Source of the DNA: Heterodontus francisci
Lineage: Eukaryota
NCBI RefSeq assembly: GCF_036365525.1
Contig: NC_090377.1
Span: forward strand, 90,325,126-90,389,125
Direction of reading: 5' to 3'
DNA length: 64,000 nucleotides
Shown: piece by piece, positions 1 to 48,476 of the stretch
How the letters are laid out: every line of letters starts with the position of its first letter
Position numbering within the stretch: the first letter of the stretch is position 1
The notes under the pieces: model-generated
The model's database searches: none
The model's input: only the letters and a program-made list of their open reading frames with translations
What the model was told of the DNA's origin: nothing
Made by a program: the position numbers and the translations under genes

Positions 1-262
1 GCTGTCTTACAATTCCCCCTCAAGTGTCTATGTGAAATTATTTTTTCACTAGGACACTTCCAGCCCTCTGCCACAATTTTAACAGTATTTTTGCTTTCCT
101 TTTTGATTTCATTGTACCAGGTCAGTCAGTTAAAATACTACAATAACCAATGGATGACGACTATTCTTAACATATACTGGTGTAATTGTTCTTCTAACTC
201 ATCTTCTCCAGCGATATCGACTTGCTTATGTAAATTAGCAGTATTCTAACTGATCCTAACAG

Positions 263-603
263 GATGACACAGTGGTGAAGTGGTTAGCAAAGCAGCCTTA
301 CAGCTCCAGTGACCCGGGTTCGGTTCTGGGTACTGCCTGTGTGGAGTTTGCATGTTTTCCCTGTGACCGCGCGGATTTCCGCTGGGTGCTCTGGTTTCCT
401 CCCACAGCCAAAGACTTGCCGGTTGATAGGTAAATTGGCCATTGTAAATTGCCCCTAGTGTAAGTAGGTGGTAGGAGAATTGAGGGAAGGTGGGGATGTG
501 GTCGGGAATATGGGATTAATTAGGATTAGTATAAATGGATGGTTGATGGTTGGCACAGACTTGGTGGGCTGAAGGACCTGTTTCAGTGCTGTATTTCTCT
601 ATG
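263..603 (+). mobile_element. tRNA-derived SINE (HE1/V-SINE-like)
   Basis: A box (AGTGGTTAGC), B-box-like GGGTTCGGTTC, V-domain-like core and CR1-type tail; homologous to the copies at 2556 and 42200. Confidence 0.85.
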
Positions 604-724
604 ACTTATTAATTTCCTAATTAAGCACTTATCATAATCAGTAGCTGGTGAATATACTGGAGGACCCCCTCCCCCCCACGCATACACACACTCTAAATAC
701 TCCAACAAGGGCCACTAATTCTAA

Positions 725-1499
725 GGCCAAGATTTTTCTTGGTGGTGAGCTTCAAAAGAGGCGTGGCACACATGCAGACGTGCACCGTGGAGCCGACGCG
801 ATATGTCGCGTGGCGACTCATTTACATTGAGAGGGTGGACCACCTGCCCCCGATGACATAGAGGGGGAAGGCAATCCATCCGCAGCGATGGTGTCCGGTG
901 CCACTGCGCAGGCAATGCCATTTTTAAAGGGCTTCAGGCCCTTCCATTTCATTTTACTGTTTAAAGTCGCAGATTGATAAAAAAAGATTAAAATAAAAAG
1001 TTGGTCACACTTCCAGTCCCCTCTCCCACCCCCCAATGAATAATCAGTTTACTACTTGTTCTGTCCCACCCAAAAAAGTAAATTTTCGATCACGACCTTT
1101 CCCCCCGAACTTTCTTTAACCTTCAACCCCTTCCCCTCCCCCGCCCTGAAAAATTAATTCGTCCCCCTTCCCCACCAGTGTTCCGCATCGGATCTCCGAA
1201 TGGAGAATTGAAGCCGCGGGACTTCCGGCAACCGGCCAGAATATTGGCGTGCAGCGGCCATCGCGACGAGGTAAGTAATTATTCATTTACTAGCATTGAT
1301 TTAAATATGTATATTATTTTTTTTGCCAAGCAGCGGTGGGGCCTCCTTGAGGCCTCACCACTGTTGGTAAAATTGGGTGGGGACTTCCTGGTGCCAAGGC
1401 TCGTGGCAGGCCTCCCCCGGAGGTATTTTCCACCCCCCCCCCCTTCCCCGCCACAACCCCCAACATCGGGGGGGGGGGGGGTCTGGTAAAATTCAGCCC
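725..1499. mobile_element. Non-autonomous PIF/Harbinger-type MITE
   Basis: Imperfect TIRs GGCCAAGATTTT...AAAATTCAGCCC, TAA TSD on both sides, CpG-rich; inverted homolog at 50291-51136. Confidence 0.75.
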
Positions 1500-2555
1500 T
1501 AAGATATTACCATGTAAATGCATAAGTTTCAAGCAACAGCTAAATCTTGATTTAAAGGATTCTCCATCTCTCTCTTCACCTCTATCTATATTGTGGATAA
1601 ATCGTACTAAGTATTATTTCTCCCTCGCCTTTTACTTTAACTTTAGTCCTTCTGACCATTACCAGTGTGTTTAATTCTATCCTGATCTTTTTAAAGTAAG
1701 TTTCTCAATGGAGTATGTGTCAATGCCTTGGTGATTTTTTAAAAAGTTGTCTCAGTCTACTGGCCACATTAACCATTTCATGTCATGCTGTTTGTCAAGT
1801 AACTGAACATGTCTGAGACTTGTTCTTTGGTGCAGGTTCACCATGCAATTCCGCACATTAGTTGCTTCACATGAAGCAAATCACATCTACACACTCACAC
1901 AGGTATTCCAATACAATGCCACACATGCCATCTGATACAAGCCATTTTTGGGCTTTCAGGTGATCTCCTTAAAAGATCAAGGAGGGTGTCTGTCTAAAGA
2001 TCTTTGCTTGTCTCCCCCTGCATGGCCCCGATGTCTCAGGTAGTGGCCGAACTATCATCAAATGCAGTTATCTTAAAAAGTTCATAGGCATAGATACAAA
2101 CATCTCCAAGAGAAAGCTATCAATTTATTTATCTCATCTACACCTTCCTCTCACTAGAATGTACATTAATACCAGATTTATATACCCATTGAATTGCACT
2201 CTGGTGATATTTCCAATTCCCATTTGTTGGTGTTTTTTTCCCCTTTATCTCCTATCCTTGATCACTTCTTCTCATTCAATTTTACACATCCCATTAGTTT
2301 ACCATTCTATTTCATTCATGAGCGCTGGAGGAACTTTACTGCCCAATACAATATTCTCATAATATCCTTAAAACAGAAGTCAGACTTTCCCACTTGATTC
2401 CAGGAATTGATGCATTTTGTTTGCCTGCTCTTTATTTAGATAACCTTTTATTTTTCAAAAATAGCGGTGTTGTTGGGCTGACAGGGTTTGTCGATGTTCA
2501 ATTCATTTCTCCCCAAAATAAGCTTTATTTTGATACTCAGGAACTAAATACTTCA

Positions 2556-2850
2556 GGCGGCACAGTGGCGCAGTGGTTAGCACTGCAGCCTCACAGCTCC
2601 AGGGACCTGGGTTTGATTCTGGGTACTGCGGAGTTTGCGAGTTCTCCCTGTGTCTGTGTGGGTTTTCGCCGGGTGCTCCGGTTTCCTCCCACAGCCAAAG
2701 ACTTACAGGTGATAGGTAAATTGGCCATTATAAATTGCCCCTAGTGTAGGTGAAATTATTGTAGGGTTAGTATAAATGGGTGGTTGTTGATCGGCACAGA
2801 CTCGGTGGGCCGAAGGGCCTGTTTCAGTGCTGTATCTCTAAATAAATAAA
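2556..2850 (+). mobile_element. tRNA-derived SINE (HE1/V-SINE-like)
   Basis: GGCACAGTGGCGCAGTGGTTAGC head and (TAAA)n tail. Confidence 0.87.
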
Positions 2851-3654
2851 CTGCTTTTCCTTAGTTTTTTAAATGAAAATTTGATTATCCACTAAACTTC
2901 ATGTAAATTTCCCTTTGAGTTTTTTTTTATTCATTCATGGGATGTCGGCATCGCTGGCTATGCCAGCATTAATTGCCCATCCCTAATTGCCCTTGAAGTG
3001 CTTGAAATAGCAACTCATAGCAATTTATTTTATCAATTCCAATCTCAAAAACAATGATGCCCAGTTTGGCAGTTTTACATGATATTTTTACGTCAGAGAA
3101 AACAATGCTTGTAATCATTTTAAACATGGCTCCCATATCTCTCCTTCTGGAGCACTTTGCCTCAGAAGATAACGAATGACCTGAAGGGGTTAAGGTCAAG
3201 TCTTTAAAAGGCAAAGCCTTCAGTTCAAATTGTCACCATGGTGTGACACTTGATGTCTGCAAATAACTTCTTAAATTCTGAAAACAGCTATATCTCATAC
3301 TGCAGTAACCATGTGGGCCTGGAAAACATCGTCACCTGTTTAAAAAAAGAGTAAAGAATCGATTGTGACTCTGCCCAAGAGCCCAAGAGGTTAATTTGTC
3401 CAATCATATTCACCAATTTAGAAACTTAAAATTTAATAATGGCCAATATATAAATTTACACTCAGCTACACCAAAGTTATGCGGTGAATTAAATGAAAAA
3501 ATAACTGTCAGCAGAAAGGGTTAACTTTGCTGCTTGTTTGCAAGGATGTGGAGTAAAACATTAACAGATGCACATAATTGCATCACTTTAAGTAACATTT
3601 TTTTCCCGATCAAGGACGAATAAAACACCATTTTAAACATCTTTCCCACATCTT

Positions 3655-14940: not shown

Positions 14941-15708
14941 CTGAGTTGGCTTGTCCTCTGATTTTCCCCTCCCTCCCAATAGGAATATGCTGGGTTTTAA
15001 TCCAGTAGTTTACCTTAACACCATGGCTGAGATCAGATAATTTATATGGAAATTGGAGAAGTGAATTTGTATCATACTATTGCATTGTGCAGCATCCTCC
15101 ACAGAGTTCTTGCTACAGCTGCAAAAGCTCTAGGATTGAGAGAGAAAGAACCTGAGAAACACCAGCATGGAGAACTGTTTGCTCTAAAGTAATGTTCCGG
15201 CTTTACATCATTTCATGATCATTTCTAATATATCTGCTTCACTGATAAAAGATGAATATATGAGGAGTGCTCGAATTGTATCGTGCAGAACAATTGGAAA
15301 AATGGTGTACATCTAAGGACAAGTAATTGGCAATTCCCTTAAATTTCTTTTTACTATAATCATTTTTTTACAAGTTTTCCAGGTACCGTTTTTCACTATG
15401 GTATCACAACCCTTACATACAATAACTAATTTTTACCATAAAAAGAAAAACGGCAAATGCTGGAAATTTGAAACATAAATAGAAAATGCTGGTCAGTTGG
15501 TATCTGAAAGAGAAAAACAACAGTAATTTGTCTTTCAGTTATTCACAGGCCTGCTGTGTATTTCCAGCATTTTATGTTTTTGTAGCTAATTTTATTTTCT
15601 ATTTGTGTGTTGTTGGATATGCAACCAACATTTTTAGTTAAATCATTTAAAGGTTGTAACAAGACTGAGAAGAGTCCTAACAGTTATAAATGTGCAATTG
15701 CCATGTAG

Positions 15709-15950
15709 ACGTTCTGCAGAGTGATGCTTCGGTTGCTTTGGCTGAAGTGGCTCGTGGACATAAGTGGAACCAAGATGCGATTGTAGCTGAAGGGGCAGTT
15801 GGCCCTCTGATACATATCCTCAGTGGACGGAAAATCAAGATGCAGCTGAAAGCAATAACAGCAGTGGAGGTTTTAGCTGAAAGAAATGCTGCTATACAAA
15901 AAGAATTTCTTGAAATGTCTGCTGACAAACATATTTTGAAACTTCTCAAG
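15709..15950 (+). CDS. ANKAR: ANKAR internal exon, DVLQSDASVALAEVARGHKWNQDAIVAEGAVGPLIHILSGRKIKMQLKAITAVEVLAERNAAIQKEFLEMSADKHILKLLK
   Basis: ag/gt boundaries; 242 nt, phase 1 in and phase 0 out; lies within ORF 15690..16046; ARM repeat. Confidence 0.9.
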
Positions 15951-16464: not shown

Positions 16465-16825
16465 GAATTTCTCTCATGTTGTTTCTACCGATTCTTAGAA
16501 CAATTAATAACATTTCTAGATCTTTTATGGAAAGAATTCTGTGTCACTGTTCTTATATTTACATCAGGTCTACAGCACAAAAACAGGCCATTTGGCCCAA
16601 CTTATTTATGCCAGCATTTTTCCTCTCTACAAGCCTCCTCCCACTGCATTTCCTCTAACCCTATCAGCATATTCATCTTTTCCTCTCTCTCTCAGACATA
16701 GCTAGCTTTCCCTTAAATGTATCTTGCTATTTCCCTCATTTGCTCCTTCTGATAGCAAAAATCGCATTCTTAGCAGTCTTTGGGTAAAGACGTTTCTACT
16801 AAATTCCCTATTGGATTTGCTTTTA

Positions 16826-19800
16826 TAAAATTTGTTCATGGGATATGTGGATCAGTGGCAAGGCCAGCATTTATTGCCCATCCCTAATTGCCGTTTGAGA
16901 AAGTGGTGGTGAGCTGCCTCCTTGAGCCATTGCAATCCATGTGGTCTAGCTACACCCATAGTGTGGGTAGGGGGTTCCAGGATTTTGACCCAGTGATGAT
17001 GAAGGAAAGGCGATATGTTTCCAAGTATGGATTTTGTGTGATTTGAAGGGGAACTTGTGGGTGGTGGTGTTCCCTTGCTCTTGCTGCCTTTGTTTTTCTA
17101 AGCAGTAGAGGTCGCAGGTTTGGCAGGTGCTGTTGGAGAATCCTTGGCTGGTTGCTGCAGTGCATCTTGTAGATGGTACACACTGCAGCCACGGTGCACT
17201 GGTGGTGTTGAGAATAAATGTTTAAGGTGGTGGATGGGCTGCTAATCAAGCGGCTCCTTGTCCTGGATGGTGTCAAGCTTCTTGAATGTAGTTGGAACTG
17301 CATTCATCCAGGCAAGTGGAGAGTATTCATTACACTCCTGATCTGTGCCTTGTAGATCATAGTAAGGCTTTGGGGAGTATGGAGGTGAATCACCTGCTGC
17401 AGAATATCTAGGCTTTGACTGGCTCCTGTAACCATAGCATTTATGTGGCTCATCTAGGTAAGTTTCTCATCAATGGTAACCCCAGGGATGTTGATGTTGG
17501 GGGATTTAGCAATGATAATGCCACTGAATGCCATGGGGAAGGTGATTTTACTTTCTCTTGTTGGAGATTGTCATTACCAGACACTTGTGTGATGCAAATA
17601 TTCCTTGCCACTTATTAGCCCAAGCCTGGATGTTGTCCAGGTCTTGCTGCATGTGGGCTTAATTCCCTGAATAGTTGCAAATGGAACTGAAGACTATGTA
17701 ATCATCAGCAAATGTCCCCACTTCTGGCCTTGTGATGGAGGGAAGATTATTGATGAAGCAGCTGAAAATGATGGGGTCTAGGACACTGCTATGAGGAATG
17801 CCTGCAGCGATGTCCAGGGGTTGTGATAATTAGCCTCCAACAATCACAACTGTCTTCCTTTGTCCTATGTATGGCTCTAGCCAGTGGAGAGTTTTCCCCC
17901 TGATTCCTATTGACTTCAACTTTACTACAGGTCCTTAATGCCACACTCGATCAAATGCTGACTTGATCTTAAGGGCAGTCACTCTCACCTCACCTCTTGA
18001 ATTCAGCTCTTTTAGCCATATTTGTACCAAGACTGTAATGAGGTCTGGAGCCAAGTGGTCTTGGCGGAACCTAAACTGAGCATCGGTGAGCAGGTCATTA
18101 ATGAGTAAGTGCCACTTGATAGCACTGTGGACAATGCCTTTCATCATTTTGCTGATGGTTGATCATAGGCAGTAATTGGCCCTTTTGGATTTGTCCTGAT
18201 TTTTGTGGACAGGACATACCTGGGCAATTTTCCACATTGTCAGATAGATGTCAGAATTCTAGTTGTACGGGAACAGCTTAGCTAGAGCTGAGCACTTCTT
18301 CAGCACTACAGACAGAGTGTTGTCAGGGCCTATAGCCTTTTCTGTATCCTATGCGCACCGATGTTTTTTGAGTGGAGTGAATCAAATGGCTTGAAGCACA
18401 GCATCTGTGACAGTGGGGATCTCAGGAGGTGGCCAAAGTGGATCACCCACTAGGCACTTTTAGCTGAAGATGATTGCAAATGCTTCAGCCTTGTCTTTTG
18501 CACTCAAGGGCAGGGCTCCGTCATCACTGAAGATGGCATGTTCATGGAGCCTCCTCCTCCTGTTAGTTCATGATTGGATGTGGCAGGACTGCAGAGCTTT
18601 GATCTGATTTGTTGCTTTTGGGATTGCTTAGCTCTCTCAATAGCATGCTGTTTCTGCTGTTTAGCATGCATGTAGTTCTGTGTTAAAGCTTCTTCAGGTT
18701 GGCATCTCATTTTTAGATATGTTTACTGCTGCTCCTGGCTTGCTGTCCTACACTCCTCATTGGACCAAAGTTGGTCCCATGGCTTGAGAGTAATGGTAGT
18801 GTGAGGAATATGCCAAGTCATGAGGTTTCAGATTGTTGTGTTGTTGCTGATGGTCCACAGTGTCTCATGGATGCCCAGTTTTGAGCTGCTAGATCTGTTC
18901 TGCATCTATCCCATTTAGCACGTTGGTAGATGGAGAGTGTTCTCAGTGTGAAGACGGGACTTCGTCTGCACATGGACTGCGCGCTGATCACTGCTGACTA
19001 TACTGTCATGGATGCGTCTGCAACATATAAATTGGTGAGGATGAGATCCAGTATTTTTTTCTTTTGCGTTGGTTCACTCATCACCTGCCATAGGCTCAAT
19101 CTGGCAGATATGTCCTTTAGGACTCAGCCATCTCAGTCAGTAATGGTGCTACCAAGCCACTCAGTGATGGAAATTGAAGTCTCCCAGCCAGAGTGCATTC
19201 TATGCCCTTGTCACCCTCAATGCTTCTTCCAAGTGCTGTTCAACATGGAGGAGTACGGATTCAACAGTTGAGGGAGAGCAGTTGGTGGTAATCAACTGGA
19301 GGTTTTCTTGCCAATGTTTGACCTGATACCATGAGACTTTACGGGTTCCGGAGTCAATGTTGAGGATTGCCAGGGCCATTCTGTCTCGATTGTATACCAC
19401 TGTGCCGCTACCTCTGGTGGTTCTGTCCTGCCGGTGAGACAGGACCTATCCAGGAAAGGTGGAGGAGGAGTGGTATGATTCAGTGAGTATGGCTATGTCA
19501 GGATATTGCTTGACTGGTCTGTGGCACAGCTCTCCCAGTTTTGGCACAAGTCCCCATATGTTAGTAAGGAGCACTTTACAGGCTGGATGTGCTCCTGTTG
19601 TGTCTGGTGCCAAAGTTGATGCTGACTGGTCCTTCAGTTTTATTCTTATTAATCTCTTTAGTAGTGGTTTAATATAAGTGTGTGGTTTGCTAAGTTATTT
19701 CAGAGGGCATTTAAGAGTTAACTACATTGCTGTGGATCTGGAGTCAAATATAGGCCAGACTGGGTAAGGATGGCAGATTTGCTTCCTTAAAGAACATTAG

Positions 19801-19965
19801 TGAACCAGATGGGTTGTGATGACAAAATGGTAGTTTCATGGTCACCATTATTCCATATTTAAATTCCCCAGCTGTTGTGATGGAATTTGAACTCATATCT
19901 CCACACCATTTGTCTGGGCCTCTGAATTACTAGTCCAGTAACATTACCACTATACTACTGTACCC
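16826..19965 (-). mobile_element. Near-complete decayed single-ORF LINE (APE-RT) with a tRNA-like 5' head; clade uncertain
   Basis: APE start TNIWGLVPKLGEL..PDIAILTES (~19480-19570); RT VTALKIKSAFDRVWH; 3' tail ..CCCATGAACAAAT; A/B-box head at ~19870-19965. Confidence 0.8.
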
Positions 19966-26150: not shown

Positions 26151-27314
26151 CCTCCATCATTTATATCTATCTTGTGATTTTTGATCATAAATGATGGTAG
26201 ACAATTAAGCAACAATTAGGAGAGAAGGCTCCATGAACAACTTCATCCTCAATAAAGGCAGAGACCAGCAAGGGAATGCGAAGAACCATCTTCAGCCAGA
26301 AGTGCAGAGTGGAAGATCCTTCTGAGCCTCTTCCTGAGGACCTGCTATCAGAGAAGTCAGTCTTCACTCAATTTCACTCACTTCATGTGATATCAACAGC
26401 AGAAATAACTTGCATTTCTATAGCTTCTTTAAAGTAGTAAAATGTCTCAAGTTGACAAAAACAGCTGAGTGCACTGGCCACTACAAATGTTATGGGACTC
26501 GACAACATCAAACTGTAGTGATGAAGATCTGTGCTCCAGAACTAGCCACACCAAGCTGTTGTAATATAGTTACAACATTGGCATTTGCCTGACAATTTGG
26601 AAAATTTCCCAGGTATGTCCTGTCCAAAAAAGGGAGGAAAAATCCAACCTAGACAATCTACTTACTCTCAATCATCAGCAAAATGATGAAAGGAGTCACC
26701 AACAGTGCTATCAAGAGGCATTTGCTCACCAATAAACTGCTCAACGATGCTCAGTTTGGGTTCTGCCAGGCTCACTCAGCCTCGGGCTGAATCTTAACTG
26801 CCAAGTGGAGGGGCGGGGTTGGATGCAGGCTGGGGGGATGTTAAAGCCCCAGAAACGCTGGGTCAGAACTCCAGCATGTCCTGACCAGTTCCAGGTTTAA
26901 CCAAGGTGTGTTTGAATGGGTGAGCTGGCATGAGGAAAATAGCCTCCATTATTTGTATCCATCTTGTGACCTTTGATCACAAATGGTGGTAGACAATTAA
27001 GCAACTAACTGGAAGAGGAAGCTGCATGAACATCTTCATCCTCAATAATGGCAGTGACCATCGTAGGTGTGCAAAGGACTATTTTCAACCAGAAGTACCA
27101 AGTGGTACAAGTGGGAAACCCCCATGGAGCTGTCAGGTAAGTAATTTCAATATTGAAATAGGCAATTAACAGTGAATTTAACTCAGCATTATGGCTCTAA
27201 TAGCCAGCGTATGTCTTTCCCAAGCTGTGTGGAACTCACTACGGTCAACAAGGAGAGAGAACAGCAGGAATTCAGGTTGGAAGGCCTTTAAACAATGAAA
27301 CTGCATAGCTGCAA

Positions 27315-28103: not shown

Positions 28104-28244
28104 AGCTGCAGGCCAGCCTATGTGAAAGGCTTGTGCTCTCAGCAATTGTTGTAAAAGCCTGATTCCGCTGCTTCAAAGGTGATTTCCAATCTTTTGAAAG
28201 TCATTCACCTACGTTGGACTTTACTCACAGTGGTCTGAGCTTTT

Positions 28245-28612
28245 TAAAAATTCTTTCATGGGATGTGGACATCACTGGTGAGGACAGCATTTGTTAGCCA
28301 TCCCTAATGGCCCTTGACAACTGAATGGCTTGCGAAGGCATTTCAGAGGGCAGTTAAGAGTCAACCACATTGCTGTGGGTCTGGAGTCACATCGAGGCCA
28401 GGCTAGGTAAGGACAACAGATTTCCTTCCCTGAAGGGCATTCATGAACTAGATGAGTTTTTACGACAAATGATGGTAGTTTCATAGCACCATTATTGAGA
28501 CTAGCTTTCAATTCCAGATTTTTATTAATTAATTGAATTTAAATTCCACCAATACCATGGTGGGATTTGGTGGGCATTAGCCTGGGTCTCTGGATTACCA
28601 CTATGCCACTGA
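28245..28612 (-). mobile_element. SINE composed of the tRNA-like head and body plus the 3' tail of the tRNA-headed LINE
   Basis: Body matches 19670-19965 and 45930-46230; tail matches the LINE 3' end at 16830-16895. Confidence 0.8.
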
Positions 28613-28849
28613 CTGCCCATGCTATCAGCCTTCACTGCAGTATGGGAGAAACTTATACAGCTAAAGCATGAACCTCTAATGAGGAGCAACAAGAGCAGCC
28701 ACACCAACACCAGCAGCATCAGGAGCCACATAGACAGCTGCAGTATCAGCAGCACCAGGAGCAGCAAAAACACCAACAGCAACTGCCTTCTCTGCAGCCA
28801 CATGCCACTCCACAGGGCAGAGAGGATAGACACAGAGCTCCAGCTTGAA

Positions 28850-31079: not shown

Positions 31080-32799
31080 TTCTTTACTTGTACAGGCCTT
31101 CACAGTAAAGGTTGCCTGCAGCCATTCTGACCCTTGCCAGGAAACCTAGAATCAGAATGCTGTGTTGTGGCTGAGTTAAAGAGCCATGGCAAAGTCCGCT
31201 GATGAAAAAAAAGTTTCCTGTCCCACTGCTGACCACCACCCTCTACCACCACTGTGAGCAGGTCAGTTCAGATAAAATTCCACTCCTCCTTACAGCCTTG
31301 ATCCAAAAATGGACAAAAGAACTGAATTCTGGTGGTGAGATGAGAGTGAACGCCCTTGACATCAAGGCCGCATTCGACCGGGTGCAAATGCCACAAAAGA
31401 GTCCTAGTAAAACTAAAGTCATTGAGGATCAGCAGGAAATTTCTCCACTGGTTAGTGTCATACTAGCACAAAGGAAGATGGTGGTTGTTGTTGGAGGCCA
31501 ATCATCTCAGCCCCAGGGTATCGCTGCAGGAGTTCCTTAAGGTGACTTTCTAGATCCAGCTAGCTTCAGCTGATAAACCTCTCCACTAACTACAAGGCAC
31601 AAGTCAGTAGTATGATAGAATACCCTTCACTTGCCTGGATGGGTACAACTGCAACAACACTCAAGAACCTTGACACCATTCAGGATAAAGCAGTCCACCT
31701 GATTGTCAGCCCATCCACCACCTTAAACATCCACTCCCTCCACCATCAGTGCACTGTGGCTACAGTGTATATTATCTACAGGATGCATTGCAGCAGCTCC
31801 CAAATTCATGACCTCCACCACCTAGAAGGACAAGTGTACTACACTGCATTGAAACACCATCACTTCCTAGTTTCCTTCAAGTCATACACCATCTGGACTT
31901 GGAGATATATTGTCATTCCTTCATGGTCGCTAGGTTAAAATCCTAGAACAACAACTACAATTCCAACTTACATTTACATAGCACCTTTAATGTAGTAAAA
32001 TATCCCAAGATGCTTCACAAGAGCATTATGAAACAAAATTTGACACCAAACCACATAAGGAGATATGAGAACAAATGAGAGGTAGATTTTAAGGAGCATC
32101 TTAAGGAGGAGAGAGAGGTAGAGAGGCAGAGAGGTTTTGCAAGGGAATTCCAGAACTCAGGACCTAGGCAACTAAAAGCATGGCACCCAGTGGTGGAGCA
32201 ATTAATCTCAGAGATGCGCAAGAGGCAGAGCTGAAGGAGTACAGAGATCTCGGAGAGTTGTAGGGCTAGAGCAGGTTGTAGAGATAGAGAAAGGCAAGAC
32301 CAAGGCAAGATTTAAAAACAATGATGAAAATGTTAAAATTGAGGTGTTGCCAGACACGGAGCCAATATAGGTCAGCAAGCTCAGGAGTGTTGGACAAACA
32401 GGATTTGGAGAAAGTTAGGACACAAGTTTCTGGAGGGTTGAGGATGGGAAACTGGCTAGGAGAATATTAGAATAGTCCAGTCTGGAGGAAACAAAACTCC
32501 CTAACAGAATTGTGCTAGTACCTTCACCACATGGACTGCAGTGGTTCAAGAAGAAGGCTCAAGGGCAACTAGGGATTAGTAATAAATGCTGGCTTTGCTA
32601 GCAAATCCCATATCCCTAGAATGAATAAAAACAATCTTGCTACTATAGATAGCAAGGTTTGAACTAATTAACAGGAAAGCAAAATATGTCTGAGAGATTG
32701 GTATATTTAGTGCCAGAATTTTGTAAAATACTCTGAAGTCTTTGGATGTACAGCATACAGGATGACACCACAACTGTTATTCTGCAATTATTGCTTCAG

Positions 32800-32953
32800 G
32801 TTTTTGAAATAGAAATCAGAGAGCAAGCAGCAACAGCTATGTGGGCACTAGCAGGAAAGACATTGACACAACGAGAAAAGATGGCCAAGGAAATCGGTTA
32901 TAGTTTGGTGATAGATCTTTTATTATCGTCATCTGATAAAATGCACAATGTTG
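32800..32953 (+). CDS. ANKAR: ANKAR internal exon, VFEIEIREQAATAMWALAGKTLTQREKMAKEIGYSLVIDLLLSSSDKMHNV
   Basis: cttcag acceptor and gtaagt donor; 154 nt, phase 0 in and phase 1 out; continues the frame of the previous exon. Confidence 0.9.
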
Positions 32954-33439
32954 GTAAGTTACAGTTTTATAATAAGTTTAATTTTTCATACATTGGAAAA
33001 TGTAATACTAAGAATAAATTTGCAACATTATTTAGCTTATGCATGGCCATTCAGGCACCAATATGCAGCACAATAGCAATTGGGATGCAGATTTTATTCT
33101 CTGTACAAATGAATTCCAAACCTCAGTCCTGTTTACAAGGGGAAGAGGGGAGAATTCAGAGGTAGAATGGCCCCATGTGTACTGCTTAGTGGCACTGACA
33201 GCCGCCTGGTTGCAGTTTACCAACTAATGCAACCCCAATTCCTCATTTACCACAGTCCAACACCTTACCTTCCCTTTGTTACTAACCATCACAGCATCCT
33301 CAAGCCACAATGCTGAAACAAAAGCCGCCACAAAACAAACATTGCAAATCAAATTTATCAATCAAACGATCCAATATTCCATATAAAATTTAACTGATCA
33401 CCCTTGTGTATTCCCTTGGTGCCTGCCTTCTGCGTACCT

Positions 33440-33800
33440 TTTTTTTATTCGTTCGGGGGATGTGGGCATCATTGGCTAAGCCAGCATTTATTTCCCATCT
33501 CTAATTGCTTATGAGAAGATGGTGATGCGCTGCCTTCTTGAACTGCTGCAGTCATTGGGGTGTAGGTACACCAACAGTGGAAGGGAGTTCCAGGATTTTG
33601 ACCCAGCGACAGTAATAGTTCAAAGTCAGGATGATGTGTGGCTTGGAGGGGAACTTGCAGGTGGTGGTGTTCCCCATGCATCTGCTGCCGTTGTCCTTCT
33701 AGGTGGTAGAGGTCACAGGTGTAGAAGGTGCTGTCGAAGGAGCCTTGGTGAATTGCTGCAGTGCATCTTGTAGATAGTGCAAACTGCTGCCTCTGTGCAT
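33440..33800 (-). mobile_element. 3' fragment of the tRNA-headed LINE family
   Basis: Shared tail GGGAAATAAATGCTGGCTTAGCC...CCCACATCCCC. Confidence 0.75.
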
Positions 33801-35864
33801 CTGTCCTAGTGCTCCTGCACAATGTTACCCCAGTGGTTGCAGCATAGCTGGTGGAATGCTGCTGACTTTCAATGGGGTTGACTGCAGATGGCCTTGCACA
33901 ATGACCTTGAATGGCTATGGCCCTGGAAGGCCCAGCTTTGGATTGCACCACCTGAGCATGGACAGCAGCAGTCTGGGCTGACTGACTGACAGGCAACAGC
34001 AAGGGCACTGGCTGAGTGTCAGTTGTGGGAGGACAAATGCTCTCATCATGAAAGAGGCTCATCTTCCACAGTGCCACTGCCATTCCCACATCAACCTCAA
34101 CAATCCTAGCAATGTGTTTGAGGACAGATTGCTGGAATACTGTGAGACCCTGCAAGCCCCTTTGCACACAATGTCCTCAATCATAGTGGCAGCATCTGAG
34201 CTTCCACTACAGCAGCCAGACATTGAGTAGTTTCTGCTAGTGCTGCAAATGAACCTGAGACATCAGCCATCAGACACTGCATCGTGGTTGTGTTTTCATG
34301 GAGTTGGCCACCACTTCCATGCTGGAAAGAATGGGCTCTAAGCTCTGTGCAAAGCCCTGTGCCAAAGTTGTTGACAGCCTCCTTGATTCCCCTTGACACT
34401 GTCTACAGGCTTTCTGGCAGGCCTGCCAATGCACCAAACACTTTAGTGTGCATACCCATCAGCCTTTTTCTGTAGGCTGCCCATTCAAAGTCCTCATCTG
34501 AGTCCCCTGCAGCGGAGCTTGTGTTCAGCCTCACCTTCACTACGCTGCACTACCCTTGTCCCCTGCCCTGGCTACAGGCCATTCATGCCTAGTGCCTCAC
34601 CATGTGCAGATCCTGCCTCCAAGTTACCCTCTAAAGTACAGGCAATGTCAGTATCTGAGATGGTGGATGTGAGTTTGAGAGTGACTGACAGTATTTCTTC
34701 TTCATCTTCTTCATCACTGTTTTCCTGCTCTTCCACCTCCTCCTCCACCACTGCCTGGCCGGGTTGCAGTTCTTGGGGATCTGAAAGGAGAAAGCACAAG
34801 GGTACAGTTGTGGTCAGGGGAGTAGGGGGGAAGCAAGAGGTTTGTATTTACACTAATTGCAAATTGTAAATAAAGATTGTGAGATGAAGGGGAAGTTGGA
34901 TGTGACAAGGATTAGATATGAACATACCATCATCTTTGATGGTTTCAGTCCCCCTGCTGGTCAGGGCCTCAGTCATGGCCACTCCAATGATGGCAAGCAT
35001 TGTCTCCTCCATGGTTCTGAGGACCTGCAGGCATGCCTTTTCCCACCGATTAGCTCCTGCTGCCTTCGGCTATGCACCGCGATGCATTGCAAAAAAGAGG
35101 GAAGTGTGTTATTGAGTGTGGTATTTGGGTCATGTGGTTGTCATGGTTGAATAGCTGGCAGTGTATGCAATCTGTGAGATGTGGGTGTAAGGGTGAGATA
35201 AGGCATATGAATGTTATGTTTGAGTTGTTATTGATTGAGATTGTTGGTTGTTGAGTGATGGGGGTGTGTAGCATTGAGTAAAGTGTGAGATTTGCAGGGC
35301 AATTGGTAAGATGTCGCATTTGAAGTTGAATTTTCTAATCTTGACCACTCTTGTGAGGTCATTGAACTTCTGACAGCACTGCAACCTGGTCCTTGTCCCC
35401 TGCCCTGGACTTTGGCATTGACCACCACAGCCATCTGTTCCCATTAGTTTCTGAGAATTTGGAGCAGTGGTTGGCAACGTATCCGTACACCAGTGTCCAT
35501 GGTAAAAATTTTGAGGTCCGTGACTGGCAATTTCAGGAATGAGAAATTTCCCATTGACTTCTTCTTTCCAGACAAGTCTGACTTTAAAAAAATTCACAGC
35601 CATCAGATTCAGTTTCACGCTGACCAGTGCTGGGACGGGAACAGCGGCTTCCGAAATCAGGACAAGTTCTGTTTTTTCCGGCAGGTTCTGATTGTTTTTT
35701 AGAAAGCCTGCCAAAAACCCCGAACCTGTCCAGAGCTCGGAAGCCACTGTTCCCGCTCCCAGCACCTTTCACTGTGAAAATGAAACTGACAGCTGTGAAT
35801 TTTTTTTTAAAAACTGACCAATCACAAAGCTGGTCTTGAGAAAGTTCCTGCTCTGTGCAACTGT

Positions 35865-36912
35865 CAGAGAGAGAGGCAGAGGGAGAGACAGAGAGAGAGA
35901 GAGAGGGAGAGGGAAGAGGACGAGGGAACAGGGAGGGGGAGAGGGAGGAAGAGGGAGAGGGGAGAAGGACAGAGAGGCAGGGAGATGGGAGAACGAAGGA
36001 AGAGGGAGAGGGAGAGAAAGGGGAAAGAGAGAGGGAGAGGGAAGNNNNNNNNNNNNNNNNNNNNNNNNNNNNNNNNNNNNNNNNNNNNNNNNNNNNNNNN
36101 NNNNNNNNNNNNNNNNNNNNNNNNNNNNNNNNNNNNNNNNNNNNNNNNNNNNNNNNNNNNNNNNNNNNNNNNNNNNNNAGGGAGAGGGAGATTGGGATGG
36201 AGAGCGAGAGAGAGGGGGAAGAGAGTGGGGGAATACGGATGGACACAGAGGAAGGGGGGGCGAGAAAGTGAGGGAGAGAGATGGACACAGAGGGGGGAGA
36301 GAGAGAGGTGAGAGATGGATTCAGAGAGGGTATAGGGATTGACACAGAGAGGGGGCGAGTGAGCGAGAGGGGAGAGAAAGAGATCAAGATCACACCTGAC
36401 ACTTGGAGAGACAGAGAGGAGAGAGAGGGAGAGGAAAAAGTGAGGCAGAGAGAGAGGAAAGAGGGAGAGGGGAGAATGAGGGAGAGAGAGGGAGAGGGAG
36501 AGAGGGGTGGGAAGAGCGAGGGGGAGAGAGGAAGGGGAGAGAGAGTGCGGGAGAGGGGAGGGGAGAGATAGGAAAGAGAGAGAGGGAGAGGAGAGAGTGG
36601 GAGAGAGTGGGAGAGAGAGAGTGGGGGAGAGAGAGAGGGGTGAGAGAGTGAGGGATAGAGGAGAGGAGTGAGGGGGAGAGAAGGGGGATGGAGGAAAGAA
36701 AGTGGAGAGAGATGGGGGCAAGAGAGAGGAGGGAGAGAGAGGAAGGGAGATAGGGATGGACAGAGAGAGAGGGGAGAGAAAGGAGGAGAGAGTGGGGGGA
36801 GACAGATGGACAGAGGGAGGTGAGAAGGGGGAGAGAGAGAGAGGGGGAGAGATGGACAGTGAGAGGGTATAGGGATTGACACAGGGAGAGAGAGTGAGAG
36901 GGGACAGAAAGA
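35865..36912 (+). repeat. Polypurine GA-rich low-complexity tract
   Basis: Directly visible; accounts for the long low-complexity ORFs here. Confidence 0.95.
36045..36178. other. Assembly gap (134 N)
   Basis: Run of n. Confidence 0.99.
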
Positions 36913-38400: not shown

Positions 38401-38713
38401 AGTGGAGCAGACCTGCTCGTTTCTCCAGCCGTCATCTGTTCTTCACAACAACAATTCATATGGAATTGCAAACTCTTTAAATTGAACCCATTAAATAGCA
38501 ATTACAGCCTTTGAGCGCAGCAGTGCAATATTTAATCTCTCACTGTCAATGAACTCCTAGCATGAGATCTGTCATAAGTATTTTTTTCCCAACACTTTTA
38601 GTGTCAGAACTATACAATTTGCCTTAATAGTTTCTTTGCCTGGTCTGGCCTATATGTGACTCCAGACTCACACCAACATGGTTGACTCTTAACTGCCTTT
38701 TGAAGTGGCCAGT

Positions 38714-39495
38714 TCTTCTTTGGCCTCCTTGTCTCGAGAGACAGTGGGTAAGCGCCCAGAAGTGATCAGTGGTTTGTGAAGCAGAACCTGGAGTGGCTAT
38801 AAAGGCCAATTCTAGAGTGACAGACTCTTCCACAGGCGCTGCAGATAAAATTGGTTGTCAGGGCTGTTACACAGTTAGCTCTCTCCTTGCACTTCTGTCT
38901 TTTTCTCCTGCCAACTGCTAAGTCTCTTCGACTCGCCACTCTTTAGCCCCACCTTTATGGCTGTCCGCCAGCTCTGGCGATCACTGGCAACTGACTCCCA
39001 CGACTTGTGGTCAACGTCACAGGACTTCATGTCGCGTTTTCAGACGTCTTTAAAGCAGAGACATGGATGGCCAGTGGGTCTGATAGCAGTGACGAGCTCG
39101 CTGTACAATGCGTCCTTGGGGATCCTACCATCTTCCATGCGGCTCACATGGCCAAGCCATCTCAAGCGCTGCTGGCTCAGTAGGGTGTATATGCTGGGGA
39201 TGTTGGCCGCCTTGAGGACTTCTGCGTTGGAGATACAGTCTTGCCAAGGATTCTCCGGAGGCAGCGAAAAAGATGGTCTGCTCTTGGCTGACATACGTTG
39301 CCCAGGCCTCTCTGCCGTAGAGCAAGGTACTGAAGACACAGGCTTGAAACACTTGGCCATTTGTGTTCCATGACAGTGCACCATTTTCCCACACCCTCTT
39401 GGCCATTCTGGACATAGCAGCGGACGCCTTTCCCACGTGCTTGTTGATTTCTGCATCTAGAGACAGGTTACTAGTGATAGTTGAGCCTAGGTAGA
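38714..39495 (-). mobile_element. 5'-truncated RTE-clade LINE
   Basis: YLGSTITSNLSLDAEINK and RLRWLGHVSRMEDGRIPK motifs; (GAA)n tail; 13-bp TSD TGAAGTGGCCAGT. Confidence 0.9.
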
Positions 39496-40425
39496 TGAAG
39501 TGGCCAGTAAGCCATTCAATTGTATCAAAGTGCTTGACCAATGAGAGATCGGGAATAAATGCCAGCCTTTGTAGCAACGCTTACATCCCAAGTATGAATA
39601 TTTAAAAAGAGCCATTTCAATTATATCTATGATCTATATATTAAAAATCCTAATCTGCCTAGATTTCTTGACAACTTTTCTATTATAAATTCCAATGCCG
39701 ACATTTATAATGGGAAGTACTATGTAAGCTTGCCATGATATGATTACATTCTCTGGCCGGTAGTTCTGCTGTAGCTCCTCAATTTTGTATCTCGCAGCTT
39801 CTCAGTCTGCAAAAAGAAAGATTTGTATTTATATAGCACTTTTCATGACCTCAAGATGTCCTAAAGTGCTTTGCAATCAATGAAATTCTTTTAGAAGTAT
39901 AGTTATTGTTGTACTGCAGAAACATTCCAAAACTCTAACACTACTTCTCTGCTTCCTAAATTACATTACCTTGCGCTATTTAATTTTAAAAAACAAATCA
40001 AAGTACTATATAAAAATATGGACAGAACATATGGCTTTAAAATGGGGATTGAATTATGTCTCTGTACGCTGACCCAATTACCCTGTCCGCTAACCCTTCT
40101 TAGCTGAAAACAACACTTGACCTTTATTCCCTGTATGCGATGCCACGTACCAGAGATAAACTAGTACATATTAGAAAAACTGGGCTTACTCAGGTCCATT
40201 AGCTAATGTAATTTTTAAAAATGTTTTAACTTTACATTTCAACTAGAAAAATAATCAAATGGTATTTGCTTTTAATATAACCTTGCCAATTGTAAAAACT
40301 TATATATCAATTCAATTTTTGTCATCGTCATGTTCAAGTGAACGTGAGAATTTTTATGTAAAGTTAGAAACTTCATTATTCTAATACCAAATATTTGAAA
40401 CTATATTGATTGTTCATTTATTTAG

Positions 40426-42659: not shown

Positions 42660-45600
42660 TTTTGTAATTTATTCTTGAGATATGAGCATTGCTGGCAAGG
42701 CCAACATTTACTTCCCATCTCTAACTGCGCTTGGGAATGTGGTGGTGAGCCACTGCCATGAACTACTACAGTCCATGTGGTCTAGGTACACCCAAGTGTT
42801 GTTAGGGAGGGAGTTCCTGGATTTTGACCCAGTGACAGTGAAAGAATGATAATATACTTCCAAGTCAGGATAATATGTGATTTGTAGGGGAAATTGTAGG
42901 TGGTGGTATTCCCACGCAACTGCTGCCCTTGTTCTTCTAGGTGGTAGAAGTCACAGGTTCGGAAGGTGCTGTCGAAGGAGCCTTGGCGAATTGCTGCAAT
43001 GCATCTTGTAGATCATGGTTGTCCAACATATGGTCAGAGTCCGGCCCTCTAAATGTTTCCATCCAGTCCGCCGATGTAAACTGCCGGAATGTCAGGAAAC
43101 CACAGCGGGTAGCTCTTGGTTTGTTAGGACCCTGCTCCCACACAATATGGCTGTGCCCAGCGGAGAGGTGGTGTTCACAGCTTGCCTCTATAATATGCGT
43201 TTATGGTGAGTGCACAGTGGGGGAGTGCGGAGCAGGGAGCGAGCAGTGGAGATTGAGGAGTGGGGAGCAGGCGATGGACAGTGAGGAGTGAGAGACTTAC
43301 ACTGAAAGAGGGGGAGGAGAGAGACAGAGAGATGGTGGACTGAGAGAGAGGGGAGAGAGAGAGAGGCAGGAGAGAGAGAGACGGAGGAGGGAGAGAGAGA
43401 GAGAGACATAGAGAGAGGGTGGGAGAGAAAGAGACTGAGAGACGGGGACAGAAGCAGACAGAGAGAGACACACACAGAGAGAGGGGGGAGAAAGAGATCA
43501 AGATCACTCCTGACAGATGGACATCTATCTGGAGTTCTCCACATCACTACATCAAATGTGCAGGCAGATGTTGAGTACTTACATCAGCAAAAATAATGTC
43601 ATGTATGACACTAAATCAGTGTTCAACCTCGTGGTGCGAAAGTAAGAATAAATTAGTTTTCTCATTTAAAGCTTCTTCACAAAAATGCACATTTGTTGTT
43701 TTGATAGTAAGATCATTTTTAATACCTTTATCTTTCTGAAATTTTCTACCAGCCCCCTGTGTAGGACAAAAATTGTAATGTGACGTCCCCCACACAAAAA
43801 GGTTGGACACTCCTGTTGTAGCTGCTACACACTGTTGCCGCTGTGCACTGGTGATGGAGGGAGTGAATGTTTAATGTTGTGGATGGGGTGCTGATCAAGC
43901 GGGCTACTTTGTCCTCGATGATGTCGAGTTTCTTGAGCGTTTTTGGAGCTGTACTCATCCATGCAAGTGGTGAATATTCCATTATACTCCTGACTTGTGC
44001 CTTGTAGATGGTGGACAGGCTTTGGGGAGTCAGGAGGTGAATTACTCCCCACAGAATTCCCAGCCTCTGACCTGCTCTTTTTTTATTCTTTCAGGTGATG
44101 TGGGCATCGTTGGCTAGGCCAGTATTTATTGCCCATCCCTAATTGCCCTTGAGAAGTAGGTGGTGAGCCGTCTTCTTGAACCACTGCAGCCCATGTTGTG
44201 TAGGTACACCCACAATGTTGTTGGGAAGGGAGTTCCAGGATTTTGAGGCAGTGACAGTTAAGGAATGGTTCCAAGTCAGGATGGTGTGAGCTTCGAGGGG
44301 AACTTGCAGGTGATGGTGTTCCCATGTATCTGCTGCCCTTATCCTTCTAGCTGGTAGAGGTCGCAGGTTTGGGAGGAGCTGTCAAAGGAGCCTTGGTGAG
44401 TTGCTGCAGTGCATCTTGTAGATGGCACAGATTGCTGGCACTGTGCGCCGAAGGTGGAGGGAGTGAATGTTGAAGGTGGTAGATGGGGTGCCAGTCAAGC
44501 TGGCTACTTTGTCCTGGATGGTATTGAACTTGTTGAGGGTTGATGGAGCTGCACTCATCCAGGCAAGTCGAGAATATTTCATCACACTCCTGACATGTGC
44601 CTTGTAGATGGTGGAAAGGCTTTGGGGAGTCAGGAAGTGAGTTACTCGCCACAGAATTCTCAACTTCTGACCTGCTGTTGTAGCCACAGTATTTATGTGG
44701 TTGGTCCAGTTCAGTTTCTGGTCAATGGTAACCCCCAGGATGTCAATAGTGCGGGATTCAGCGATGGTAATACCATCGAATGTCAAGGGGAGATGGTTGG
44801 ATTCTCTCTTATTGGAGATGGTCATTGTCTGGCACTTGTGTGACGCGGATGTTACTTGCCACTTATCAGCCCAAGCCTGAGTATTGTCCAGGTCTTGCTG
44901 CATATGGACATGGACTGCTTCAGTATCTGAGGAGTTGCGAATGGTGCTGAACATTGTGCAATCATCAGCGAAATCACCATTTCTGACCTTACGATGGAGG
45001 GAAGGTCATTGATGAAGCAGCTGAGATGGTTGGGCCTAGGACATTATCCTGAGGAACTCCTACAGTGATGTTCTGGGACTGAGATGATTGACCTCCAACA
45101 ACCGCAACCATCTTCCTTTGTGATAGGTATGGCTCCAGCCTGTGGAGAGTTTCCTCTCTGATTCCCAATGACTGCAGTTTTTTTGGGACTTCTTGATGCC
45201 ATACCCAGTCAAATGCTGCCTTGATGTCAAGGGCAATCACCCTCTCACCTCACTCTTGAGTTCTACTCTTTTGTCCATGTTTGAACCAAGGCTGTAATGA
45301 GATCAGGAGCTGAGTGGCCCTGGCAGAACCAAATCTGAGCGCCAGTGAGCAGTTTGTTGCTGAGTAAGTGCCTCTTGATTACACAGATGATGACACCTTC
45401 CATCACGTTGCTGATGATCAAGAGTAAATTGATGGGGCGGTAATTGACCGGGTTGGACTTGTCCTGCTTTTTGTGTACAGGACATACATGGGCAATTTTC
45501 CACATTGTTAGGTAGATGCCAGTGTTGCAGCTGCACTGGAACAGCTTGGATAGCGGCTAGCTAGTTCTGGAGCACAAGTCTTCGGTACTATTGCCAAAAT

Positions 45601-46232
45601 GTTGTCAGGACCCATAGCCTTTGCAGTTTCCAGTGCCTTCAGCCATTTCTTGATATCACATGGAGTAAATTGAATTGGCTGAAGACTGACGTCTATGATG
45701 CTGGAGACCTCAGGAGGAGGCCAAGATGGATCATCTTCACAGCACTTAAGCTGAAAATGATTACAAATGCTTCAGCCTTGCCTTTTACAATTTTGGCACA
45801 TGCCCCCAGAAGTTAGTCAGCAGGATTTTGCAGCGTCAACAGAGCTGACTGTGTTGTTATTGTTTCCAGTGCCTAGGTCGATGCCAAGTGGCCTGTCTGG
45901 TTTCATTCTTTTTAGACTTTTCTCTAGTGGTTTGGTACAACTGAATGGCTTGCTGGGCCATTTCAAGGGCATTTAAGAGTCAACTACGTTGCTGATGGTC
46001 TGGAGTCACATGTAGGCCAGACCAGGTAACGACAGCAGGTTTCCTTCCCTAAAGGGAACCAGATGGATTTACAACAATCGACAATGGTTTCATGGTCACC
46101 ATTACTGAGATGAGCTTTTTAAAAAATGTTTAAATTCCACCAGCTGTCATGGTGGGATTTGAACCCATGTCCCCAGAGCATTAGCCAGGCCCTCTGAATT
46201 GCTGGTTTAGTGGCATTACCACCACCTCCCTA
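42660..46232 (-). mobile_element. Two tandem copies of the tRNA-headed LINE family (42660-44077 fragment; 44078-46232 with head and internal deletion)
   Basis: ORFs 44382..44954, 44989..45240 and 45263..45505 (RT motifs); B box GGTTCAAATCCC at ~46154-46165. Confidence 0.85.
43014..43815 (+). mobile_element. hAT (Charlie-like) non-autonomous element
   Basis: TIRs CATGGTTGTCCAAC / GTTGGACACTCCTG; 8-bp TSD TTGTAG(A/C)T; GA tract and transposase C-terminal remnant. Confidence 0.82.
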
Positions 46233-48476
46233 CAATAGATACAGTATTTATAGATGGCTGGTCCAGTTAAGTTTCTGGTTATTGGTAACCCCAGGATATT
46301 GATGGTGGAAGATTCAGCAATGGTAATACTGTTGAATGTCAAGGGGAGATGATTAGATTCTCTTTTGTTGGATGTTAATTGTGTATCAATTGTTAAATTA
46401 TTACAGGTGGAGGGCGTTTTTTGGGGTCCTGCTTGAGCACTTATAAAGAGACACTTACTGAGACTAGTGGAGGTTTGAGTAAGGAGCTCCTTGTTTGTAA
46501 TACTTTTACTCTGTGCAATAAATGTGAAACTGAGTAAAGATAGGCTCCAGCATTATCATTCCACAACAAGCTTTCTGGAGTTTAACATGGTAGCAGAGGA
46601 TTGTTGCTTAAAGCTGAGGGTTGGAAACTAAGAATTTTTTTTTACATAGAAAACTAAAATCTCACTTGCTATTGTGGAAAATGTGGCAGAAAGCAAGTGT
46701 AAATTGTCAGGGTATGATTGCCATCCAATGTTCTGAGTCTGAAACATATGACCAGTGGAAGAATTAAGTGGATATGTGGTCACGGATTACGTCCCTACCA
46801 AAAAGGACACAAGGTATGGCCTTGGCGTTGTCACTTCCTACCAAAAGTAAAATCAGCAGTTAAGTGTTTTGTGAACTGGGTGCTTGTCAGTTTGATACTA
46901 ATGAAGATTTGAATCTTCTGTTAGAATTTTTGGTTGAATTTTACAAGAAAAATGACCTATTAAATGTATATGAGGCATGATAGATTTCAGAAAACAGATG
47001 GTTATTTAATGGAGGAATATGTCATGGACTTTAACAGACTGTATAGAAAATTGATAAAATTCAATTTGGAGTTTATCGTTGCTTCAGGTGTGACTCAAAG
47101 TATCATGATGCAATGCACTGCCCAAAGCGGATGGGCAGAATCCTTGAAAAACACATCACTCAGAGAATTCTGAAGCAAAAGAGGAAGATACTGATGAATC
47201 TGAATGAATTATATATATAGTCACAAGGAGTTTTAGTCCTTTGATGAATGTGTTTGTTGCGGATTCATTCAACTGTACTGTATTAGCTAGTGCTTGCACA
47301 TTGACAGTATGTGGAACTGATTGGTTACATTGTTCTCTGGATTCACTCAGTAGTGAAGATCAATGCAAGGTTAAGAAGTATAAAAGTCCTACCAGCTTTA
47401 AGTTTGGTGATGACAACACATTGAAGTCACTAAAGAGAGTAGTAATTCCATGTAAAATAGCTGGAGTAAGCCACTTTATCAGTACTGATTTAGTCTCTAG
47501 TGAGATACTTTTACTGTTAAGTAAACCTTCAATGAAAAAGGCACAAATGAAACTTGATATGGAGTGTTTTAAGGCTTTTGTTTTTGGAAAGTCAGTGAAT
47601 TTGCAGTTTACCTAGTCAGGGCATTATTGTATCCCCTTAACAAAATCTGATGTTTCTAGTCAGAGTGTGAAAGAAGTATTAATTGCATCAGGTGATAAGA
47701 ATCAGAGGGATAAAAAGCAAATTATCTTAAAGTTACACAGACAATTTGCTCATCCTTCTTGTCAAAGATTAAAAACCCTGCTAAAGGATGTAGGTGTGAT
47801 TGATGGAGTCTACGAGGCTATTAGAACAGATTAGTGAACAGTGTGAAACCTGTAAAAGGTACCGGAGGATGCCATCCACTGGCACGTGACTTTAACGAGG
47901 TAGTTGCCATGGATTTAAAGAACACGAGGAAAAGACAAGAATATTTTCATTATACATTTTATAGACCTAGCAACTAGATTTAGTCTTTCTACAAGAATAA
48001 ATAGCAAGGACAAAAGGATGATTATAGATAAAACCATGCAGAAATGGATAGGGACTGGATTTGGGGCACCAGCTATGTTTCTGACTGATAATGGAGGGGA
48101 GTTTGCCAATGACAAGTTCAGAACATTATGGATATGAATACTGCAGCTGAAAGTCCTTATGAAAGGAATTATGCAGTGATTGATTAAATGTTGCATAAAA
48201 TCTTAGCTGATCAACCAAACTGCAAGTTGACAACTGCCCTGGCATGGGCAGTTCATGCAAAGATTTAGCTTCATTTGGTTGGGGGATATAGTCCCTATCA
48301 ATTGGTCTATGGGCAGAATCCCAAATTGCCTTCTGTACTGTGTGACAGTCCTCCTGCTCCAGAAGGTACGACAATTAGTTCCATTTTTTCAGCAGATTTG
48401 AATGTGTTACATCCAAAGAGATGGGCTTTCATCAAGGCTGAGGTCTCTGAGGCATCATATAAGGCCATCTGAGGCA

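Follow-up and report, generated by a model that had tools for sequence, protein, structure and literature searches.

A Catalogued Elasmobranch Zenon LINE with a tRNA-Related 5' Head, Its SINE, and a Sequence Signature of Probable Pol III Read-Through

Results

The window is the whole stretch of Heterodontus francisci DNA that was analyzed, 64,000 nucleotides of contig NC_090377.1. An initial annotation had reported two copies of a LINE in which a tRNA-like head, a body, and a linker run directly into the APE domain without an ORF1. Both copies were confirmed by alignment (Table 1), with the majority of 14 young genomic copies used as the reference. Copy 1 (19965 to ~16821, minus strand) formed one alignment block with reference nt 16-3284 at 77.6% identity, in the order head, body, linker, and then TNIWGLVPKL. 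It is an old, decayed full-length copy of a 3.28-kb single-ORF LINE. Copy 2 (~46230 to 44078, minus strand) keeps about 10 APE codons after the linker, and reference nt 473-1582 are then missing, a 1.1-kb internal deletion that removed most of its APE. The short element that had been placed at 28245-28612 is indeed the head and body joined to the LINE tail, and the alignment extended its bounds to 28241-28618. The body-plus-tail copy split by an RTE (38633-38713 and 39496-39600, plus strand) was also recovered, with no head. The inserted RTE fragment (38713-39499) is 86% identical to the young RTE of the genome and has the 13-bp duplication on both sides.

Table 1. Coordinates of the LINE copies, the SINE, and associated features in the window.
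Feature	Position	Strand	Basis or remark
Copy 1, tRNA-derived head	19878..19965	−	A box 19947-19957; degraded B box 19882-19894
Copy 1, non-coding body, common to LINE and SINE	19670..19877	−	Alignment to family majority
Copy 1, A-rich linker and basic N-terminal ORF codons, without in-frame AUG	19555..19669	−	
Copy 1, decayed single APE-RT ORF, Zenon type	16890..19554	−	Alignment
Copy 1, 3' tail: stem-loop, then A-rich end	16821..16889	−	
Copy 2, head, body, linker, first APE codons	45788..46230	−	B box 46154-46166
Copy 2, RT half and tail	44078..45785	−	Reference nt 1583-3296, 87.5%
SINE: LINE nt 1-323 joined to LINE nt ~3221-end	28241..28618	−	
Headless short copy, body part	38633..38713	+	
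RTE fragment inside headless short copy	38713..39499	−	13-bp target duplication
Headless short copy, body end and tail	39496..39605	+	

Further truncated fragments of the family lie at 2921-2996, 26190-27051, 31285-33804, 42660-43013, 43816-44079, 46241-46588, 58386-60518, and 63062-63592 of the window. Several window fragments abut end to end, which suggests insertion next to or into older copies. A likely host exon with an armadillo-like repeat was found at 15708-15950 on the plus strand (Pfam Arm, E 0.0017, under the cut-off), and copy 1 apparently sits antisense in the intron next to it. Positions 36045-36178 are 134 N.

It has been reported that Zenon elements in five elasmobranchs lack ORF1, end in an A tail, and are still absent from repeat repositories (Stuart et al. 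2026, PMC13343379, available text). The family in the window has the Zenon traits of a single APE-RT ORF without ORF1 and an A-rich 3' tail, and Pfam Exo_endo_phos, Exo_endo_phos_2, and RVT_1 were matched on young family copies. A 21-nt motif of the body matched seven supplement rows of that article. All seven elasmobranch Zenon consensuses start with the head, as judged by eye over their first 400 letters, and these headed consensuses span five species, including sharks and a ray. On this by-eye match to the published consensuses, the window LINE is elasmobranch Zenon. The initial annotation could not tell whether the family had been catalogued; the supplement of PMC13343379 already holds it under this name. 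In an RT tree that contained no labelled Zenon reference, the family grouped with invertebrate-type ORFs at 43-44% identity and stood apart from the vertebrate CR1 of the genome (26% identity). Vertebrate CR1 proper, which has an esterase ORF1 and a microsatellite tail, was rejected as an identity; the family did not cluster there and has no ORF1. A cluster look-up and the Atlas gave no clade names, and a whale shark preprint, in its available part, names CR1-Zenon-like LINEs only.

We determined the anatomy of the head in 101 heads of the family. The commonest A box was TGGCRTAGTGG (42 heads) and the commonest B box was GGTTCRAATCC (47 heads). The initial annotation had assigned both boxes to the window heads. 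Both are found across the family, whereas in the window each head has one good box, the A box in copy 1 and the B box in copy 2. In the window SINE the B box is mostly deleted, and ARAGORN found no tRNA in the window. The family head scored z 7.3 against shuffles when aligned with host tRNA-Thr, in a comparison of 11 distinct tRNA-like sequences whose top score was the head of another SINE. Rfam returned a weak tRNA-clan match on the family copy L036 (19.5 bits, E 0.35); over the 5' 640 nt it gave a sub-threshold tRNA-Sec match only and no ribozyme. Judged by these likenesses, the head is tRNA-related, with A and B boxes as in a tRNA-derived SINE (SINE2). It has a stem of 5 bp whose anticodon-like 7-nt loop reads CTAGTAA in 69 of the 101 heads. 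An extra hairpin lies between the boxes, and in an old clade two of its pairs change on both sides, in 5 and in 4 of the 101 heads (P about 0.002, for copies that are related and not independent). Many identical tRNA-Thr(TGT) genes are scattered on contig C35 and on unplaced contigs, an apparent expansion of these genes in the genome.

The body was better conserved than the head (0.92 vs 0.83-0.86), and its 3' 150 nt formed the best-conserved stretch of the 5' module. The fold of the body showed no extra stability over shuffles (z -0.03 and about 0), which leaves an IRES-like stable fold unsupported, while the 3' tail of the young copy L034 folded at z -2.45. The body showed no likeness by eye to the alignments of the Deu, Meta, and UCON3 domains printed in PMC7245038. 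Identity of the short form with Deu-SINEs or SacSINE1 was rejected by eye on the same alignments. A TATTTCT motif, of the partial-terminator type, was present in the head of 9 of 14 young-subfamily copies.

We investigated the relationship between the head and the LINE by searching the same genome with the head-to-APE stretch. Among the best 39 non-self matches, 25 started at the head and 36 reached the APE start, so the order seen in the window is beyond chance. From a biased pick of 20 fetched head-bearing copies, 14 ran head to tail in one alignment, three did the same but with an insertion, and three were deleted or cut. The 14 full-length copies were 90-96% alike and shared a sharp 5' start; none had an intact ORF. 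An unbiased sample was taken as 80 evenly spaced 10-kb stretches (800 kb), in which the family made up 8.7% of the DNA. This sample contained eight APE-start fragments, of which six ran to the head, one started in the body, and one inside the ORF. All seven sampled copies that extended upstream of the APE entered the head or the body, and neither an ORF1 nor any other upstream sequence was found in the eight fragments. The same 800 kb held 23 5' modules, 12 leading to the tail and 7 to the ORF, with 4 unclassified. Scaled to the genome, with Poisson error only, these counts correspond to ~53,000 (21,000-108,000) headed LINEs and ~90,000 (47,000-158,000) SINEs.

Target-site duplications (TSDs) enclosing head and ORF had been proposed as a check, and none longer than chance was found. 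The mean longest match was 3.5 in 17 LINEs against 3.4 for mismatched pairs, and 3.0 in 15 SINEs against 3.3; one of 18 LINE loci and 13 of 28 SINE loci had been dropped where the end motif was not found. Because neither the LINE nor the SINE has TSDs above chance, this test is uninformative on the unity of head and ORF. If a separate SINE had landed immediately upstream of truncated LINEs, or if the arrangement were an assembly artefact, a TSD around head plus ORF would likewise be absent. Yet the junction is constant in all copies and species examined, no tail stands there, and the SINEs also lack TSDs; we give this explanation practically no weight. Separate insertion is refuted by the unbiased count in 800 kb together with the published elasmobranch consensuses. 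The head belongs to the LINE, because neither a separate tail nor a separate duplication stands at the junction, which is identical in old and young genomic copies and in 7 of 7 consensuses. These results support the reading of the element as a "SINE-headed LINE" given by the initial annotation.

Several neighboring insertions were observed in the same genome. By eye, one full-length copy (G000:C11, flanks at ~32.046 and 32.050 Mb) lies inside a Deu-domain-like SINE with no site duplication, and short family forms are found within full-length copies or immediately upstream of them (L046, G000:C14 ~107.411 Mb; L050). Young Zenon copies differ by ~3% from their majority. A very young CR1 family (copies 99% alike, mostly with an intact ~992-codon frame) and a very young RTE family (99-100% alike, intact 1069-codon frame) are both younger than the Zenon copies seen.

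We then compared the short form with the LINE. The majority of 30 SINE copies, chosen by likeness to the window SINE, consists of LINE nt 5-323 (89%) and nt 3219-end (91%, 79 nt), including the last ORF codons. The short form, with 12 copies in the 800-kb sample, shares its tail with the partner LINE. SINE junctions were found at 321>3222 and 323>3221 and in longer old forms, and a junction at about 364>3152 retains the linker and ORF-end sequence. Contigs of other organisms showed additional SINE junctions and a bridged body-linker boundary. A tree built from 79 5' modules, in which 50 of its 76 inner branches stayed open, interleaved LINE and SINE heads with five label changes, at least two of them forced by strong branches. 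Two SINEs nested with LINEs inside a supported clade (97/82). Because there are several junctions and the heads are interleaved on the tree, repeated internal deletion is favored. The simplest reading is that the SINE arose by repeated internal deletion of the LINE, a pattern that recombination could mimic. In this respect the internal-deletion origin suggested by the initial annotation stands, although the data do not fix which form came first. The head itself may first have been acquired from a tRNA or from an older SINE.

Under the reversed direction, with either polymerase, an older tRNA SINE would have captured the whole Zenon ORF, and today's SINEs would descend from that SINE. In the supplement of PMC13343379, two hagfish Zenon rows and one coelacanth row have no head in their first 400 letters, so the head was gained once. 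The SINE heads also resemble the older LINE heads, and the open branches of the head tree leave room for this order. Capture does not account as well for the several SINE junctions or for the nested SINEs and forced label changes, and an unrelated tail on this body was not observed in any copy. We regard the reversed direction as doubtful but worth weighing, and keep repeated deletion from the LINE as the preferred reading.

A count of T4+ terminators in the consensus had been suggested as a further check. The coding strand of the 3.28-kb majority contains no TTTT, while the antisense strand contains 14. Individual young copies carry 0-2, and none occurs in the majority sequence of any of four age classes. 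Since the absence of T4 is weak evidence by itself (2.1 expected from the element's own codon use, P 0.09), the argument is carried by the avoidance of TTT and its controls. The ORF has 4 TTT against 12.9 in synonymous permutations, with 0 of 10,000 permutations as low, and these four runs are its four TTT Phe codons. Phe content is low at 1.85%, and only 3 of 77 relatives are lower. At synonymous C/T sites, T was used at 4 of 40 sites where TTT results and at 202 of 480 elsewhere (OR 0.15, P 3e-5). The effect persisted without CpG sites (1/35 vs 110/373, OR 0.07) and without Phe codons, where none of 22 TTT-making sites uses T; A-runs were unaffected in the same test (OR 0.84).

As controls, three other LINE families of the genome (two CR1, one RTE) gave TTT odds ratios of 0.9-1.3, with values of 1.15-1.28 in one set of tests. 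Their near-full ORFs carried 10-14 and 10-12 T4 in the two CR1 families and 4-5 in the RTE, whose T content is comparable (0.21 vs 0.197). Interrupted T-rich 5-mers outside the head were limited to two TTGTT, compared with 31, 27, and 12 in the controls. In the available text of Orioli et al., which ranks partial Pol III terminators, T2GT2 is almost inactive. Isolated T3 barely terminates in vitro according to the same text, and the reason why TTT itself is avoided is therefore our inference. In dead copies, new C>T mutations showed at most a mild bias, being a little less frequent at sites that make TTT (OR 0.75, P 0.058), so a small share of the TTT signal may be mutational in origin.

Among relatives, we examined 44 long related ORFs from 80 metagenome loci, which are 26-38% identical to the family; the closer relatives (43-44%) are protein-only. 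All 44 carry T4 runs (5-54 each), and some reach a TTT z of -3.1 to -3.3, yet have 12-18 T4. A search for tRNA heads on these ORFs gave a single B box with one mismatch, 2.4 kb upstream, and relaxed ARAGORN matches that were scattered noise. In 15 copies of the shark family, 4-497 nt separate the tail from the first flanking T4, which would end a Pol III transcript. Because the element combines a tRNA-derived 5' head with a coding strand free of TTTT, Pol III likely transcribes it as a whole.

Pol II could instead make the RNA, from a promoter in the head or body or by host read-through, with the head a captured relic and T-runs avoided on other grounds, for instance RNA stability or export. 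PMC5786205 states that LINEs are generally transcribed by Pol II, and butterfly Zenon has the same layout without a Pol III head, according to the available text of PMC6740152. The higher conservation of the body and the partial terminator in many young heads would also agree with Pol II. A relic head, however, does not explain why sharks and a ray alike retain both boxes and the exact 5' start, or why the T-run avoidance is absent from the three control LINE families. Nor are poly(A) hexamers depleted: the ORF has 2 where 1.1 are expected, and the first 350 nt contain three. Transcription by Pol II is on balance unlikely, and Pol III remains the preferred polymerase.

The majority sequence has a single 975-codon APE-RT frame that opens after a stop at nt 307. 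We found that the first in-frame AUG is codon 285, 3' of the APE domain. Selection was compared between the old and young majorities, the old one built from 4-5 copies and containing three decay stops. The APE stretch before the first AUG had a dN/dS of 0.24 (18 synonymous, 13 non-synonymous), the ORF parts after it had 0.05-0.07, and the two other frames over the pre-AUG APE had 0.78 and 3.5. The APE upstream of the first AUG is under purifying selection. An out-of-frame AUG near nt 354 followed by a frameshift was rejected as the start, since the old clade has ATA there and the frame shows no constraint (dN/dS 2.1), although 6 of 7 published consensuses have this AUG within their first 400 letters. 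Copies differ in the length of the linker upstream of this AUG, as do, by eye, the published consensuses over the same letters. Relatives share a basic N-terminal stretch like that of the ORF frame, and a Met occurs in the first 50 codons of 35 of the 44 long related ORFs. Because there is no early in-frame AUG, the APE is constrained, the frame of the AUG near nt 354 is not, and relatives share the basic N-terminus, the best inference is that translation would start at a non-AUG codon just after the linker.

The labor could also be split, with Pol III making the template RNA and the protein supplied in trans from capped Pol II read-through of intronic copies. Such an arrangement would account for the T-run avoidance without translation of an uncapped 3.3-kb RNA, and the copies are very abundant, with copy 1 of the window apparently intronic. 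Strong purifying selection on the ORF of the master lineage (dN/dS 0.05-0.24) nevertheless fits cis preference better, and the absent AUG would remain unexplained. We consider split labor quite improbable, and favor translation of the Pol III transcript itself.

Discussion

As a rule, LINE mRNAs are made by Pol II, and SINE transcripts are short, non-coding products of Pol III. In this study, we found a headed LINE that we think probably is an autonomous element, likely transcribed by Pol III, with predicted non-AUG translation and a SINE likely shed by repeated internal deletion. In the proposed mechanism, TFIIIC would bind the internal A and B boxes, and Pol III would initiate ~10 nt upstream of the A box, read through 3.3 kb without meeting a terminator, and halt, as in the case of Alu, at the first T4 of the flank. 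Translation of the uncapped RNA would begin within the A-rich linker or just behind it. The protein would then bind the 3' stem-loop of its own RNA and insert it by target-primed reverse transcription, and deletions that keep promoter and tail would be ready-made SINEs. Engineered Pol III reporters have been reported to yield protein, and more of it after TTTT removal (PMC8223928, available text). The wider proposal of an autonomous protein-coding retrotransposon that unites LINE and SINE in a single molecule, uses Pol III through a tRNA-type internal promoter and cap- and AUG-free translation, and sheds true SINEs by plain deletion, kept from sharks to rays, has in our estimate slightly better than even chances.

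If this model is true, a family occupying ~9% of a 6-Gb genome breaks the polymerase rule that divides LINEs from SINEs. The element would be a natural long Pol III mRNA and a test case for cap- and AUG-free translation. It would also provide a one-step route from LINE to SINE without capture of a new head, and the origin of a SINE body could be named as the LINE's own 5' region. In the literature searched, to which Repbase, Dfam, and most subscription papers did not belong, neither an autonomous LINE transcribed by Pol III nor the Zenon head turned up.

The closest known elements are the elasmobranch Zenon consensuses (CarCar, HypSab, RhiTyp, ScyCan, SquAca) in the supplement of PMC13343379, which have the same head, body, and linker and whose -1 rows measure 3.24-3.31 kb. 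In the main text of that article, the terms tRNA, polymerase III, and start codon have no match, and SINE appears in a reference only. The head, the T-run avoidance, the missing AUG, and the SINE are not described in that main text. What we add is the undescribed architecture of a catalogued Zenon, with a strong, controlled signature that points to Pol III read-through.

Lepidopteran Zenon/Persaeus is likewise a single-ORF LINE of ~3.3 kb in the CR1 group, whose two-end derivatives arose several times, as in the shark (PMC6740152, available text). In the same text Persaeus has no tRNA likeness or Pol III promoter, whereas the shark derivative is a tRNA-headed SINE. The bipartite SINEs Bov-tA, AfroSINE, and CoeSINE4, from RTE and Vingi, combine a tRNA head with LINE 5' and 3' parts, as here (PMC5786205). 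In those SINEs the head was joined to an already deleted non-coding LINE, whereas in the shark the coding LINE itself is headed. The same article lists such derivatives from RTE, Ingi, Vingi, and R2 only and states that SINEs are unable to encode protein. It also says, in its available text, that RTE-1_DAn and elements related to it are LINEs that hold a tRNA-like sequence, as shark Zenon does, but RTE-1_DAn belongs to another clade, and the article does not say where the tRNA-like part lies or what role it plays. SacSINE1/Deu-SINEs and CmiSINEs are tRNA-headed shark SINEs like the short form (PMC5499810, available text). Their partner is L2-2_CM in that source, and their Deu domain (PMC7245038 Fig. 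S4) is by eye unlike the shark body described here, which the SINE shares with its Zenon LINE.
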